Source: Patescibacteria group bacterium (GTDB lineage Bacteria > Patescibacteriota > Patescibacteriia > Patescibacteriales > GWC2-42-12). From it: DNA of 64,000 bases. Positions within the stretch are counted from its first letter, which is position 1; every line of letters begins with the position of its first letter. Made by a program: the position numbers and the translations under genes. The notes below the pieces were generated by a model that saw only the letters and a list, made by a program, of their open reading frames with translations, was not told where the DNA came from and did no database searches. This document shows, one piece after another, positions 43,347 through 49,250 of the stretch. The DNA lies in contig JBAZRI010000001.1 of assembly GCA_041662965.1 (NCBI GenBank), positions 163,680-227,679 of the forward strand. The letters run 5' to 3'.

Positions 43347-43982
43347 TTATTTCCATTCTTTAATAAATTGTTTGATAAATAATTTAGTAAATAAATATTT
43401 ATCTTTAGCAATTTTTTTGGCGACTTTAGTGTTTAAATGTTTATAAGCCGACAATTCAAAATTTAAAGTATGTAAAACGCTGAAATTTCCCCCGAAAATA
43501 ATATGGGGGCTGAATTTAATATTTTTATTCCACATCGTTTTGTTATATTTTCCAGCCCAGATAAAATTTCTGCCAACGCCGATTGCTCCAAGAGATTCTA
43601 TCCTATCGGCATCTTGGAAAATTTTTATTTCTAATTCTTTTGGCTTATGTTTACAATGATTCTTAACCCAGCAGTAATTATCATGTTCTTTAATAATTTT
43701 TAAAACTATAGGTATATTATTTTTCGGAAATTTTATTTTAGTTAAAATTTTAAAGGCTAATTTAACCGATTCATGGCTGTGCTCATTATGAGTTTTATTT
43801 ATATAGCCGATATCATGGAGCAGGGCAGCGGCATATAAAATATCAAGATTAGCCTTTTTATAACTTTTAGAGATTATTTTGCAGATTTCATAAATCCTTA
43901 AGCCATGGTCTGCTCGATGAGCTACGTCCAAGTTATCTAATTCAGTTTTTGCTATAGTTAATAATTTTTTTCTCCAATCCAT
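43347..43982 (-). CDS. HD-domain phosphohydrolase
   Basis: H...HD pattern (AHRADHGLRI ... AALLHDIGY ... DADRIESLG). Confidence 0.75.
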   Translation of the reverse strand: MDWRKKLLTIAKTELDNLDVAHRADHGLRIYEICKIISKSYKKANLDILYAAALLHDIGYINKTHNEHSHESVKLAFKILTKIKFPKNNIPIVLKIIKEHDNYCWVKNHCKHKPKELEIKIFQDADRIESLGAIGVGRNFIWAGKYNKTMWNKNIKFSPHIIFGGNFSVLHTLNFELSAYKHLNTKVAKKIAKDKYLFTKLFIKQFIKEWK

Positions 43983-45283: not shown

Positions 45284-45838
45284 CTAGCTGTTTAAAATGA
45301 TTTGGTCAATCTGCTTGTATAAATCCTCCAGGCTGCCATTATTATTTATTTCCAGGTCGGCCTTAGCCATTACCATCGGAATTTCGGCGTCGGCTTCTTT
45401 ATTATGGTCTTCTAAAAATTGTTCAAAAGTTTTATCAGCGTCGTCGGGATTTTCTTTGCGTAAAACAATTCTTTGATATCTTATTTTCGGATCGGCCGCG
45501 ATGCGGACTAATTTAAAATTTCCCATTTCAGCTAAATATTTTATGTCCACCAGCCTTCTTACTCCGTCAACCGCGACAATTTTATTTTTATCATTGGCTA
45601 CGTCGCTGGCCATAACTTTAGCGATAATATCTTCGCCGAAATATTGCCTTAGAGCCGTAGAAATAAATTGCATATTTTCCCTGGCGTCCGGGATATAAAG
45701 CCGTTTCAGCACGTCTCTGAGCATGGTAGAAAACCGGTAGGGGCTGGCGCCATGTTTTTCTTTTAAATATTTAACTGTTGTTCCTTTGCCCGCGGCCAAT
45801 AGCCCGACGAAGCCGAGAATAATTTTTTTATTTTCCAT
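45284..45838 (-). CDS. P-loop nucleoside/deoxynucleoside monophosphate kinase-like protein
   Basis: Walker A GLLAAGKGT in a ~180-aa small-kinase architecture. Substrate unknown. Confidence 0.5.
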   Translation of the reverse strand: MENKKIILGFVGLLAAGKGTTVKYLKEKHGASPYRFSTMLRDVLKRLYIPDARENMQFISTALRQYFGEDIIAKVMASDVANDKNKIVAVDGVRRLVDIKYLAEMGNFKLVRIAADPKIRYQRIVLRKENPDDADKTFEQFLEDHNKEADAEIPMVMAKADLEINNNGSLEDLYKQIDQIILNS

Positions 45839-46854: not shown

Positions 46855-47736
46855 TTATTTATTATAATTTTTTAAGAATAAATCCAATTGTTTAAGCAGG
46901 TCGTTTTCATCTTTGGCCTCGATTTGTTTTACGGCAGCCGGGTTACCACGCGCCATACGGCTGACTTTTTCTCCCTGATACCACCATAAGATAATATCAG
47001 AAGCTGTAATTCTGGCGATTTCTAATTCAGCGCCAACACCCAGGCTGGGTAAGCCGACATAAGCGATTATTAAATCCGCGCTGGCGACTTCATGATGATC
47101 TTTTTTCCAGACCGCCAGAGGCGAGACCCGGGGGTTTTTTATCGGATCAGTTCCACCAAGATGAGGCACATAAACATTAGAGCAAATTTTAGAGCAAATT
47201 GCGGCGATTTTTTGGTAAGTTTCCCTATGGGCCGAATTTGTTTCGTTGGTGAGCGCGCCGCTAATGTATATTTTTCCCACGGATGAGGAAAAATTAAATT
47301 TATTATAAGAATTTTTAACCAAATAAACATTTTTTATACGCGCTTTAATTATCGTGTCCCAGCAATTTTTACAGCACCACCAGTGACCGTATAAATATAA
47401 ATCTGCATCTTTACTATCTTGTCCGTTAGCTTTAGCGTTATTGGTTGAAGTTACTTCGCTGTGTCCAGTTTGTAAGCATACCTCTTTGCAATAATGATAG
47501 TCCTCTCCGGTTTTACTGCCATTTAAAACTCGCGGGCAAACTTCTATTTTTTTACCGGCATTACAGCCACGGCCGATAATTATTCCATTTTTTACTATAA
47601 CAGCGCCGGTAGGCTGTTTAGAACAGCCGGTAGTCTCGGCCATTTTTTTCGCTTCAATCATAAACTGATTATCTTCGGCGACGAATTGGATGACTTTACC
47701 TTCGGGGAGATAAGGATATTTTATTGGTTCGGTCAT
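46855..47736 (-). CDS. dCMP deaminase fused to a DNPH1/Rcl-like nucleoside 2-deoxyribosyltransferase-family domain
   Basis: The N-terminal half has the deaminase zinc motifs GHSE and WWCCKNC. The C-terminal half has IYISGAL and ADLIIAYVGLPSLGVGAELEIA, compared with human DNPH1 YFCGSI and ADVVVAEVTQPSLGVGYELGRA. Confidence 0.75.
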   Translation of the reverse strand: MTEPIKYPYLPEGKVIQFVAEDNQFMIEAKKMAETTGCSKQPTGAVIVKNGIIIGRGCNAGKKIEVCPRVLNGSKTGEDYHYCKEVCLQTGHSEVTSTNNAKANGQDSKDADLYLYGHWWCCKNCWDTIIKARIKNVYLVKNSYNKFNFSSSVGKIYISGALTNETNSAHRETYQKIAAICSKICSNVYVPHLGGTDPIKNPRVSPLAVWKKDHHEVASADLIIAYVGLPSLGVGAELEIARITASDIILWWYQGEKVSRMARGNPAAVKQIEAKDENDLLKQLDLFLKNYNK

Positions 47737-47740
47737 ATTT

Positions 47741-48403
47741 TTAAATTTTATATTTTTCTTTAAGCTGGTCTAACTGGCCTTGTTTGATTAAATCCATTTC
47801 TTCTTCGCTGTCGGAGCGGCTTTCTAAGCCGTAAGGTGTAGATTCAAAATATTTAGCGTCTTTTAAGCCGTGTTTTTTGGCGTCTTCATCGGAAATCGGA
47901 GATGATAGAGTCTGGAAAGTCAGATGAGAAATTCTTTCGCCCGGATATAATTTAATAATTTGCGTATCGGTATTGTTGACGATAGGGAAGGTAAGCGTGC
48001 CCTGGTATTTTACGTCAATCGTGCCATTAGCGATAAACAGGCCTCTCCTTAAAAGAGAGCTGCGGGCATTAAGCTGGGCCATGATTTGATCGTCTTTCAA
48101 AGTTATTTTTTCCAATGATGAAGCAATTATAAATTCTTTAGGCAACAGTTCAAAATATTGCCCGGGTTTTAATTTAACCAAGTCAAAATTATCTTGGGCC
48201 GATTCTTTAGCGTTAAAATAATCAAAGTTAATGGCAATCCGGCCGTTTTCGGAAAGTTTCCATTTTTTTGGTATATAAAAACTGTAGCCTAGGCGCAAGT
48301 CAACGGCATGAGGCTGGATTTGGTATTGGTCAAGCCGGGGGTCAAAAATGATTTTATTATTTTTTAAATAATCCAAAATTTCCTGTTTGCTAAGTAGCGA
48401 CAT
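47741..48403 (-). CDS. dcd: dCTP deaminase/dUTPase-superfamily protein lacking the deaminase Glu
   Basis: AVDLRLG, ARSSLLRRG and GTIDVKYQG follow the Dcd-family layout. The strand equivalent to E. coli IVLEF reads LTFPI. Confidence 0.75.
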   Translation of the reverse strand: MSLLSKQEILDYLKNNKIIFDPRLDQYQIQPHAVDLRLGYSFYIPKKWKLSENGRIAINFDYFNAKESAQDNFDLVKLKPGQYFELLPKEFIIASSLEKITLKDDQIMAQLNARSSLLRRGLFIANGTIDVKYQGTLTFPIVNNTDTQIIKLYPGERISHLTFQTLSSPISDEDAKKHGLKDAKYFESTPYGLESRSDSEEEMDLIKQGQLDQLKEKYKI

Positions 48404-48419: not shown

Positions 48420-49250
48420 TTAAAGCACGATTTTTAAACCCTGAATCGGCGGCAACGGTTGGTATTGAGCGGTTAATTTACCGACAATTTCTTCAACTAA
48501 AGAATCATCGGCTTTTTCCGCCCGCTCAAACCAATTTTCTTGAGGCTCAAGCGAAATTTTCGGATGCTGGTTATCCCGTTCCAATATTTCCCAGGCGGCT
48601 TTATAATGAATATCATATATGTGGGCGTTGCTGATGGAGTGGGTTAGCCGGCCCGGCTTAACGCCAAGTTTAGCCGCCAGAATGTATTGCAGTAAAGCAA
48701 AACCGGCTACGTCATGCGGACAACCTAATATCATGTCGTTGGAGCGGACGATGGAATGAATATGCAATCGGTTGCCTATAATATTGACGGTAAACGTGTA
48801 AGGACAGGGGACATTTTTCTTTTTGTTGCCCGAGCCTAGGCCGTCGTCGGACGGATCCCAAGTGATAATTACGGCATGGCGGGAACCAGGCTGCTCTTGC
48901 AAATGCTTAATTAAGGAATCAATTTGGTCGCGGCCGAAATGTTTACGCCATCTATAGCCGTAAGCCGCGGCCACCGTGCCGTCTTCTTCGGTAAAATCAT
49001 CCCAAATTTTAGTATATTTTTTTAAAAATTCATCCGGACGATTGGAACCTGTTAAAAACCAAATTTGTTCGGCTACAAAAATTTTTATGGGTATTTTTCT
49101 TAAGGTTAAGAGGGGAAAACCATCATCTAAATGCAAAGTAATGCCCGGGACGATTTTTGTTTTATGGCCGGTTCTTTCGTTATATTCTTCATAGCCGTTA
49201 TTCATTATTTCCCAAATAGCTTCCTTATATTTTTGGTCAAATTGAGTCAT
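48420..49250 (-). CDS. thyA: Thymidylate synthase (ThyA) family enzyme with Asp at the Asn177-equivalent position
   Basis: NERTGHKT, DGFPLLTLRK, EQIWFL, YGYRWR, catalytic Cys in VPCPY, VRSNDMILGCPHDVAGFALL, and SNAHIY. Confidence 0.8.
   Translation of the reverse strand: MTQFDQKYKEAIWEIMNNGYEEYNERTGHKTKIVPGITLHLDDGFPLLTLRKIPIKIFVAEQIWFLTGSNRPDEFLKKYTKIWDDFTEEDGTVAAAYGYRWRKHFGRDQIDSLIKHLQEQPGSRHAVIITWDPSDDGLGSGNKKKNVPCPYTFTVNIIGNRLHIHSIVRSNDMILGCPHDVAGFALLQYILAAKLGVKPGRLTHSISNAHIYDIHYKAAWEILERDNQHPKISLEPQENWFERAEKADDSLVEEIVGKLTAQYQPLPPIQGLKIVL

Follow-up and report, generated by a model that had tools for sequence, protein, structure and literature searches.

A chromosomal ThyA homologue of Patescibacteria with Asp at its base-specificity position may methylate deoxycytidylate on a route to thymidylate

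We analysed a window of 64,000 nucleotides (the whole stretch of DNA considered here, positions 163,680 to 227,679 of contig JBAZRI010000001.1 in assembly GCA_041662965.1) from a Patescibacteria group bacterium. The window is cellular, encoding DnaK, GatB, a penicillin-binding protein, a Mur ligase, ClpB and a type IV pilus ATPase, and its A+T content is 60%. Its minus strand carries an operon that begins with a ThyA-family gene (hereafter the query ThyA), continues with genes for a Dcd-like protein, a zinc deaminase, a dihydrofolate reductase (DHFR)-like protein, a Nudix hydrolase, a P-loop kinase and a fusion of deoxythymidine monophosphate (dTMP) kinase (Tmk) to deoxyuridine triphosphatase (dUTPase), and is followed by a gene for an HD-domain protein and by gatB. 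The successive gaps from ThyA to the HD-domain gene are 16, 4, 0, 0, 2, 64 and 61 bp. The query ThyA is a member of the ThyA family with Asp at the position that sets base specificity. We put at about even the chance that it serves as a housekeeping deoxycytidine monophosphate (dCMP) methyltransferase and that deamination of its product gives thymidylate, a reading that draws on its sequence and on analogy with phage enzymes.

Results

The specificity residue of the query ThyA is Asp

The query open reading frame (ORF) matched PF00303 (Thymidylat_synt) over the full domain (184.5 bits, residues 6-245). It passed the TIGR03284 cut-off (122.6 versus 108.35 bits), stayed under every NF0024xx equivalog cut-off and bears the product name thymidylate synthase at both NCBI and JGI. 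Its AlphaFold2 (AF2) model adopted the thymidylate synthase (TS) fold (predicted local distance difference test (pLDDT) 86, predicted template modelling score (pTM) 0.88), and Foldseek aligned this model to solved TS structures with template modelling (TM) scores of 0.7-0.8. Within the PDB, the Foldseek search matched canonical TS alone and no solved dCMP methyltransferase, so the structure is uninformative about the substrate of the query ThyA.

In E. coli ThyA, the Asn at position 177 makes hydrogen bonds to O4 and N3-H of uracil. An earlier note on this DNA, made from the sequence alone, had placed Asp180 of the query opposite this residue, and the alignments bear it out. With phmmer, the segment 'rsndmilgcpHDvagfall' aligned without gaps to thymidylate synthases of the PDB, flanked by conserved R166, S167, D169, G173 and P175, and MAFFT alignments with E. 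coli ThyA gave the same register. The motif in the query is VRSNDMILGCPHDVAGFALL, whose first residue is 168. T4 gp42, a dCMP hydroxymethylase, reads MRSNDVVFGFRNDYAW and has Asp179 at the specificity position, again as the earlier note had it; the reference sequences used for gp42 and E. coli ThyA were 100% identical to PDB chains. Asp180 is neither a chance substitution nor a sequencing error, since Asp was found in 120 of the 120 closest homologues and its column was invariant in both alignments. By contrast, Asn177 was present in each of the 18 canonical representatives described below.

The alignments also recovered the catalytic Cys (C149 of VPCPY), the EQIWFL Glu and the R-S-x-D motif, all previously listed as conserved. 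In E. coli numbering, the query keeps R21, E58 (Glu61 of EQIWFL), W80, Y94, R126, P145, C146, R166, S167, D169, H207 and Y209; query C149, E61, R26, R124, R169, S170, H210 and Y212 correspond to E. coli C146, E58, R21, R126, R166, S167, H207 and Y209, respectively. Among these are the Cys nucleophile, the Glu that acts as general base, Arg residues that bind phosphate, and the His and Tyr that bind deoxyribose. It departs from canonical ThyA at His147 (which belongs to the water network to O4), Trp83 and Leu143, where it has Pro150, Phe86 and Asn146. The folate-closing C-terminal tail of canonical ThyA is present (...PLPPIQGLKIVL, aligned to E. coli residues 258-264, with Y263, P265 and V275 invariant), as is the coupling to DHFR.

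The query ThyA groups with Asp-type enzymes of phages

In previous work, positions 177 and 147 were the top two discriminators between TS homologues of cytosine-modified and unmodified viral contigs, and the exchange of Asn for Asp was restated to turn TS into a dCMP methylase (PMC8670742). Across characterized enzymes, Asp occurs in all cytosine users (CH, MilA and BcmA) and Asn in the uracil users, TS and deoxyuridine monophosphate (dUMP) hydroxymethylase (PMC5175136). The D179N substitution cuts the kcat of the T4 deoxycytidylate hydroxymethylase (dCH) approximately 3600-fold (PMC6400193).

A HMMER search of 1.84 billion cluster representatives retrieved 146 proteins at E<=1e-30. Among the full-length matches, approximately 115 combined Asp177 with a residue other than His at 147 (mostly Pro), and approximately 20 had the canonical His147/Asn177 pair. 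We then set 18 Asn-type representatives against 109 Asp-type ones from outside Patescibacteria, looking for positions that were at least 80% conserved in the Asn group and different in the Asp group. In E. coli numbering, Asn-type and Asp-type enzymes differed at position 83 (Trp versus Phe), position 143 (Leu versus Asn), position 147 (His versus Pro, or Val, Ile or Leu) and position 177 (Asn versus Asp). The query, 10 of 10 Patescibacteria sequences, PaMx74 and Mallos all had the Asp-type state at these positions, whereas His147 and Trp83 were conserved in 15-17 of the 18 canonical representatives. Position 42 was flagged as well, with Phe typical of the Asn group and Leu predominant in the Asp group; the Patescibacteria sequences keep Phe. 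Arg127 is often Gln or His in the Asp-type group and is His in the query. Common to both groups were R21, E58, W80, Y94, R126, P145, C146, R166, S167, D169, G173, H207 and Y209. The signature reads REWFYRHCPRSDHDNHY in the query and REWFYRRCPRSDYDHHY in PaMx74.

A neighbour-joining (NJ) tree, computed without bootstrap, held the Patescibacteria group and the PaMx74/Mallos group in one large Asp-type clade, apart from the canonical clade with E. coli ThyA. Consistent with this, blastp ranked the ThyA homologues of Xanthomonas phage Mallos (39% identity, 172 bits) and Pseudomonas phage PaMx74 (35%, 161 bits) above E. coli ThyA (27%, 108 bits) and T4 gp42 (22%, 47 bits); enzymes of the PaMx74/Mallos type, at 34-39% identity, were the best-scoring annotated phage relatives of the query. 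T4 gp42 was the most distant of the relevant relatives compared, and it is a poor comparator, although the earlier note had relied on it. The PaMx74 enzyme failed the TIGR03284 cut-off that the query passed. At E. coli position 176, Patescibacteria enzymes have His (CPHD) and most phage enzymes have Tyr (PYD). Because the query has all the class-defining Asp-type substitutions, homology predicts a cytosine nucleotide as its substrate.

The nearest relatives outside the lineage (37-49% identity) are encoded on phage-like contigs, most with a deaminase gene nearby and some with a DHFR, Vsr or deoxyribosyltransferase-like gene. On one such contig (L091, 8001-11628), genes for a Val147/Asp177 ThyA, DHFR, the very-short-patch endonuclease Vsr and DNA polymerase A lie in a row, with a dCMP-deaminase gene upstream. 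The position of Vsr beside a predicted dCMP methylase fits a phage genome that contains 5-methylcytosine (5mC). A 47-kb contig (L088, 8001-9401) encodes a 466-aa protein, P0123, in which an N-terminal extension of approximately 190 residues precedes an Asp-type ThyA domain 50% identical to the query; a Mur-ligase gene lies alongside. Archaeal methanogen-type ThyA (TIGR03283) was tried as a home for the Asp clade and rejected, with the query and nine Asp-type representatives scoring 50-102 bits against a cut-off of 174.55. In a separate viral ThyA-family group in IMG/VR (L144, L153, L157 and L159; 306-427 aa), the catalytic Cys is followed by Asn, one residue is inserted (G-A-Y-G-A-N) and the specificity residue is Asn; no deaminase, DHFR or MazG genes lie nearby. 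These proteins may be dUMP hydroxymethylases or another TS subclass.

The C-terminal tail argues for methyl transfer

The earlier note had left open whether the enzyme methylates or hydroxymethylates a cytosine nucleotide. A hydroxymethylase could be of the dCMP type, as T4 gp42, or of the cytidine monophosphate (CMP) type, as MilA, with a product processed by the operon's deaminase and its nucleoside 2-deoxyribosyltransferase (NDT)-like domain. The query shares Asp at the base-specificity position with gp42, MilA and BcmA, and with gp42 also the RSND...G..xD context of this residue and the catalytic Cys and Glu. The Nuc_deoxyrib_tr-like domain, whether fused or encoded next door, is reminiscent of MilB, the deoxyribosyltransferase-like enzyme that accompanies MilA and hydrolyses hydroxymethyl-CMP. 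Despite these likenesses, we consider hydroxymethylation scarcely credible. The similarity to gp42 is low, and gp42 has Thr147, Asp143 and Val83. It also has no counterpart of the C-terminal tail with which TS closes its active site for hydride transfer, and its product is tetrahydrofolate (THF) rather than dihydrofolate (DHF) (PMC6400193), whereas the query keeps the tail. An enzyme that releases THF would not need DHFR, but a DHFR gene accompanies ThyA at 37 of 48 related loci. The CMP preference of MilA was mapped to Ala and Lys at TS Ser167 and Arg126 (PMC5175136), where the query has the deoxy-type Ser170 and Arg124, and the query gene lies in a nucleotide-metabolism operon rather than an antibiotic gene cluster. 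The retained tail together with the DHFR linkage thus makes methyl transfer much likelier than hydroxymethylation. The linkage to DHFR also fits the suggested reductive methyl transfer that releases DHF.

Asp-type ThyA is widespread in Patescibacteria

A word-indexed search with the query ThyA returned 2465 proteins at E<=1e-10. The best 120 of these 2465 homologues were 65-95% identical to the query and came from Patescibacteria, also called the Candidate Phyla Radiation (CPR), including Falkowbacteria, Uhrbacteria, Kuenenbacteria, Doudnabacteria and Parcubacteria. All 120 had Asp at the specificity position, mostly as C-P-H-D, and those named by their source were called 'thymidylate synthase', with the exception of one 'hypothetical protein'. 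In a scan of GTDB with one genome per species, the motif was encoded at 126 loci; the search pattern itself contains Asp, so this number speaks to breadth only and is silent on Asn forms. The 80 loci that we kept came from Parcubacteria-type, Microgenomates-type (Daviesbacteria, Woesebacteria and Shapirobacteria) and Saccharimonadales records. The genome record nearest to the window is a Patescibacteria metagenome-assembled genome with 92% identity (L006).

The Patescibacteria-type ThyA operon was also present, at 60-83% identity, in records L007, L009, L010, L012, L014 and others. Many of these are titled 'uncultured Gammaproteobacteria bacterium' or 'uncultured Candidatus Saccharibacteria bacterium' (binchicken third-party annotation (TPA) assemblies), and a few Ktedonobacterales or Chloroflexota. 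Such titles look like placeholders or mis-binned contigs.

We searched the window and 1.45 Mb of loci for a second TS by tblastn with E. coli ThyA and T. maritima ThyX, and found no ThyX and one ThyA per locus; this search is a weak one, covering approximately 20 kb per genome. The gene table of the complete Southlakia epibionticum (Saccharibacteria) genome lists one thymidylate synthase, which may be of either the Asp or the Asn type. It lies beside DHFR, a 'dCTP deaminase' and dTMP kinase, all of them non-essential in co-culture. The earlier note had set against its own proposal the case of an Asp variant that is the universal and sole TS of a lineage with unmodified DNA. This case holds in part, as Asp is universal among the closest Patescibacteria homologues. 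Such universality does not refute cytosine specificity; it recasts the question as one between a route that methylates and then deaminates and a natural exception to the Asn/Asp rule.

The operon parallels the cassettes of 5mC phages

Phages Xp12 and PaMx74 have C replaced by 5mC, in PaMx74 completely, and 5-methyldeoxycytidine (5mdC) was made in vivo by the Xp12 enzyme and by five of seven tested Asp177 homologues (bioRxiv 10.1101/2024.12.05.627091). In the same study, 70% of the dCMP-deaminase genes of modified contigs had a ThyA homologue no more than 3 kb away, versus 6% of those of unmodified contigs. The in-cis dCMP-deaminase-family enzyme mSCD-B5 converted the triphosphate 5mdCTP to deoxythymidine triphosphate (dTTP) and was inactive on dCMP, and in Xp12 a cytosine label was recovered in both 5mC and T (bioRxiv 10.1101/2024.12.05.627091).

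The PaMx74 and Mallos cassettes comprise a hydrolase (PRA-PH/MazG-like), ThyA, a deoxycytidylate deaminase and DHFR. We counted partner genes within 4 kb of ThyA at 48 GTDB loci whose flanks reached 4 kb or more on either side. DHFR was present in 37, the Dcd-like gene in 40 and the deaminase in 37, and the kinase was found in 19, Tmk in 22, a separate Dut in 7 and the Nudix gene in 1. The DHFR-like gene that the earlier note had described as adjacent to ThyA does exist in the window, but as the third gene downstream rather than the immediate neighbour. In other Patescibacteria, the operon core is embedded among ribosomal-protein, gatB and glycolysis genes.

We also compared the 6-kb neighbourhoods of 80 IMG/VR loci, using a set of partner-gene queries that came from Asp-type contexts. 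A deaminase was encoded at 45, DHFR at 35 and a MazG-like protein at 41 of the 50 Asp-type loci, whereas none of these was found at any of the 29 Asn-type loci.

The query thus resembles the Xp12/PaMx74 dCMP methyltransferases in its Asp177, Pro147, Asn143 and Phe83 (E. coli numbering), in its full catalytic set and in its linkage to a dCMP-deaminase-family gene and DHFR, which implies a methyl transfer releasing DHF. As in the mSCD-B5/Xp12 route, for which an order from deoxycytidine (dC) to 5mdC to deoxythymidine (dT) was proposed, the deaminase gene lies approximately 1-3 kb from an Asp-type ThyA. Unlike the phage genes, the query gene is cellular, chromosomal, lineage-wide and linked to Tmk, and its product has His at 176. 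A Dcd-like protein without a catalytic Glu takes the place of the MazG-like deoxycytidine triphosphate (dCTP) pyrophosphatase, and the deaminase is of another subfamily. The expected purpose also differs, being thymidylate supply rather than replacement of C in DNA.

That the operon might nevertheless serve DNA modification as in Xp12 and PaMx74, with 5-methyl-dCMP phosphorylated by the deoxynucleoside monophosphate (dNMP) kinase and bulk 5mC in place of C in Patescibacteria DNA, appears highly improbable. The idea gains from the match between the operon and the 5mC-phage cassettes (Asp-type ThyA, deaminase, DHFR and a pyrophosphatase-like gene), from the phage-type dNMP kinase (phrog_139) and from the phage-like contigs of the nearest outside relatives, one of which also has Vsr. 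However, the operon is chromosomal, lies among housekeeping genes, is conserved lineage-wide and is linked to Tmk. Our literature search found no report of global 5mC for these often-sequenced organisms, and exclusion of dCTP would need a dedicated dCTPase.

Unusual neighbours of the query ThyA

The features of the query ThyA, the operon and other ORFs of the window are collected in Table 1.

Table 1. Coordinates of the query ThyA, its diagnostic residues, the operon genes and further ORFs in the window (aa, amino acids)
Feature	Position	Strand	Basis or remark
ThyA-family enzyme, Asp-type, 276 aa; predicted dCMP (or dUMP) C5-methyltransferase with methylene-THF as donor	48420-49250	-	PF00303, TIGR03284, AF2 model
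Asp180, codon GAC; equals E. coli Asn177, L. casei Asn229, T4 gp42 Asp179	48711-48713	-	phmmer, MAFFT; Asp in 120/120 homologues
N146-V-P-C149-P150	48801-48815	-	Catalytic Cys149, with Pro150 for E. coli His147 and Asn146 for E. coli Leu143
Catalytic Cys149 (VPCPY), codon TGT	48804-48806	-	
Phe86 for E. coli Trp83, class-defining substitution	48993-48995	-	Asn-type versus Asp-type comparison
TS-like C-terminal tail ...QYQPLPPIQGLKIVL, aligned to E. coli ...DPHPGIKAPVAI	48420-48485	-	Alignment columns 258-264
Dcd-like protein, 220 aa, without catalytic Glu	47741-48403	-	PF22769, 94.7 bits
Pro140 of Dcd-like protein, codon CCT	47984-47986		phmmer
Zinc deaminase, dCMP/cytidine deaminase family, with C-terminal domain	46855-47736	-	PF00383, 49.9 bits
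DHFR-like reductase (RibD_C/DHFR_1), 167 aa	46351-46854	-	PF01872, 70.7 bits; PF00186, 38.5 bits
Nudix hydrolase, 169 aa	45841-46350	-	PF00293, 52.8 bits
P-loop kinase, like phage dNMP kinases	45284-45838	-	phrog_139, 88.8 bits; AAA_17/18; weak DNMK match
dTMP kinase-dUTPase fusion, 391 aa	44044-45219	-	PF02223, 77.9 bits; PF00692, 100.1 bits; NF005923, TIGR00576
HD-domain protein, 61-bp gap below operon, upstream of gatB	43347-43982	-	PF01966, 49.3 bits
ORF directly upstream of ThyA, 223 aa	49432-50103	-	No Pfam match
ORF, 896 aa	205-2895	+	Sole Pfam match Ig_Rha78A_N
ORF, 651 aa	3273-5228	+	Sole Pfam match Ig_Rha78A_N

The Dcd-like protein passed TIGR02274, the NCBI model for dCTP deaminase (103.5 versus 92.8 bits). 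However, phmmer placed its Pro140 opposite the catalytic Glu of that enzyme (Glu138 in E. coli Dcd, Glu129 in M. tuberculosis). Of 73 syntenic Patescibacteria copies, 70 have Pro here and 3 have Ser, and R110, S111, S112, R115, D128, G133 and N142 are conserved among the 73. Two motifs, IDxxYxG and PGERI, are dUTPase-like. Judged by these sequences, the Dcd-like protein appears to be under selection and cannot be a Glu-dependent deaminase; on the simplest reading, it is probably a (deoxy)nucleoside triphosphate pyrophosphatase that stands where phages have their MazG-like gene. The name 'dCTP deaminase' may therefore be wrong across the lineage. With Pro in place of Glu, the protein would supply no deoxyuridine triphosphate (dUTP) by deamination. 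The Dcd-like gene might instead encode no more than the dUTPase of the cell; only 7 of the 48 loci have a separate Dut within 4 kb of ThyA.

The zinc deaminase has an H92-S-E motif and an unusual G117-HWWCCKNC motif (GHWWCCxxC) with a Cys-rich insert. This GHWWCCxxC subfamily is common to the deaminase partners of the nearest non-Patescibacteria Asp-type ThyAs, and it is distinct from mSCD-B5 and the Xp12 enzyme. The C-terminal domain resembles PF05014 (Nuc_deoxyrib_tr) below threshold (E=0.0067) and is weakly similar to nucleoside 2-deoxyribosyltransferase or DNPH1. The fusion of the deaminase to this NDT-like domain recurs in approximately 10 of the 48 related loci; on contigs L089 and L092 each part has a gene of its own, one beside the other, and in two related contigs Nuc_deoxyrib_tr-family genes follow the deaminase or ThyA.

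The P-loop kinase weakly matched the P-loop part of the anti-phage dCTP deaminase model (PADLOC dCTPase, 32 bits; NCBIfam NF041025). At most related loci the kinase gene lies next to the deaminase gene, an arrangement that mimics the anti-phage two-domain architecture, whereas in the window the DHFR and Nudix genes intervene. The Nudix gene, although a member of the operon here, is seldom syntenic elsewhere. Tmk, which is fused here to a canonical trimeric dUTPase, occurs in other Patescibacteria loci by itself or joined to thymidine kinase (L004, PF00265). The HD-domain protein may be a member of the nucleotide cluster and could be a dNTP or dNMP phosphohydrolase.

The two ORFs with Ig_Rha78A_N matches may encode paralogous surface proteins. 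ARAGORN found no transfer RNA (tRNA) or transfer-messenger RNA (tmRNA) gene in the 64-kb window.

Discussion

From the residues of the query ThyA, its clade, the conserved operon and the parallel with phage cassettes, we infer a substrate, an order of methylation and deamination, and roles for the Dcd-like protein and the kinase. Cys149 would attack C6 of a deoxypyrimidine monophosphate. Methylene-THF would provide first the one-carbon unit and afterwards a hydride, and the co-operonic DHFR would recycle the DHF set free. Asp180, together with Pro150, Asn146 and Phe86, would favour dCMP over dUMP, and 5-methyl-dCMP would be the product. The co-operonic zinc deaminase would then convert the 5-methyl-dC nucleotide to thymidylate, at the mono- or triphosphate level, a role we assign because of its linkage to ThyA and the phage precedent, and Tmk and the dNMP kinase would phosphorylate the thymidylate. 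The Dcd-like pyrophosphatase could turn dCTP into dCMP, or sanitise dUTP or 5-methyl-dCTP, and in doing so take the MazG-like role of the phage cassette. Taken as a whole, such a lineage-wide thymidylate route that bypasses dUMP, in which an Asp-type ThyA makes 5-methyl-dCMP, the zinc deaminase yields dTMP or dTTP and the Dcd-like pyrophosphatase feeds dCMP, is in our judgement a little short of an even bet.

The end product is less in doubt than the path. Given DHFR, Tmk and DNA of 60% A+T, the operon almost certainly yields thymidylate. The earlier note's suggestion that the enzyme acts on cytosine 'rather than make dTMP' is thus probably wrong at the level of the pathway, in view of the conserved chromosomal operon with DHFR, deaminase, dNMP kinase and Tmk.

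Several points weigh against methylation of dCMP by the query ThyA. Two of the seven tested phage homologues gave no 5mdC (bioRxiv 10.1101/2024.12.05.627091), and the activity of the Patescibacteria enzyme is a prediction from homology to phage enzymes. The clade assignment comes from an NJ tree without bootstrap values. His176, in place of the phage Tyr, indicates that the active sites are not identical, and by sequence the deaminase of the window is dissimilar to those of PaMx74 and Mallos. Status as the sole TS has a limited basis, namely the window, the 1.45 Mb of loci and one Saccharibacteria gene table. Unlike a 5mC phage, a cell must exclude 5-methyl-dCTP from its DNA. Finally, the operon appears from its genes to hold a full set for the canonical order as well, with a deaminase that could give dUMP, a real dUTPase and Tmk.

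This last point opens the way to an ordinary TS, which would methylate dUMP despite its Asp, perhaps because His179 and Asn146 keep Asp180 protonated, and would receive dUMP from the zinc deaminase acting on dCMP and from one or more dUTPases. Asp would then be a lineage-specific variant, neutral or compensated. We regard this as less likely than methylation of dCMP, though it has the most behind it of the alternatives. The gene belongs to a conserved operon whose DHFR, deaminase and Tmk genes, often joined by Dut, make up the full canonical set for the conversion of dCMP or dUTP to dUMP, dTMP and deoxythymidine diphosphate (dTDP). The query retains the catalytic residues, the folate-site residues and the tail, so that it shares with canonical ThyA (EC 2.1.1.45; E. 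coli, L. casei and human) the fold, the catalytic Cys, E58, Y94, R21, R126, R166, S167, D169, H207, Y209 and the coupling to DHFR. It passes TIGR03284 where the PaMx74 enzyme does not, and its His176 is specific to Patescibacteria. No other TS was found nearby, in the window or the 1.45 Mb of loci, and Patescibacteria DNA contains T. On the other hand, the Asp-type members with a substrate reported in the literature cited here all use a cytosine nucleotide. Exchange of Asn for Asp in TS shifts preference to dCMP (PMC8670742), and the reverse exchange cripples T4 dCH (PMC6400193). The query differs from canonical ThyA not only in Asn177 to Asp but also in His147 to Pro, Trp83 to Phe, Leu143 to Asn and Arg127 to His, so that both His147 and Trp83 are lost. 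Tight linkage to a deaminase is a mark of the Asp-type enzymes that those of the Asn type do not share.

Asp-type ThyA homologues and the route from dC through 5mdC to dT are already known for phages. In a literature search that combined Patescibacteria with thyA, thyX, dCMP methylase and 5-methyl-dCMP, we found no description of the lineage's Asp-type ThyA, and thus no prior account of a chromosomal, lineage-wide, operon-embedded enzyme of this type as the apparent housekeeping enzyme of a superphylum. Studies of Patescibacteria take their thyA as ordinary ThyA or leave it unmentioned (PMC12455944, PMC9931769, PMC11974145), and CPR folA genes have been shown to complement an E. coli delta-folA strain (PMC11974145).

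Either outcome would be informative, as a new cellular route to thymidylate or as an exception to the Asn/Asp rule. If the query ThyA methylates dUMP, the Patescibacteria enzymes would be a natural and ancient exception to that rule, and the predictor of modified cytosines in viromes that is built on it would need recalibrating. If it methylates dCMP, thousands of genes annotated as 'thymidylate synthase' or 'dCTP deaminase' would carry the wrong function, and the superphylum would make its thymine nucleotides by methylating and then deaminating, an order documented to date only for phages with 5mC in place of C. Cells would then have a third way to make thymidylate, next to ThyA and ThyX, with a bearing on uracil avoidance in tiny genomes, on sensitivity to antifolates and 5-fluorouracil (5-FU), and on evolutionary traffic between Patescibacteria and phages.

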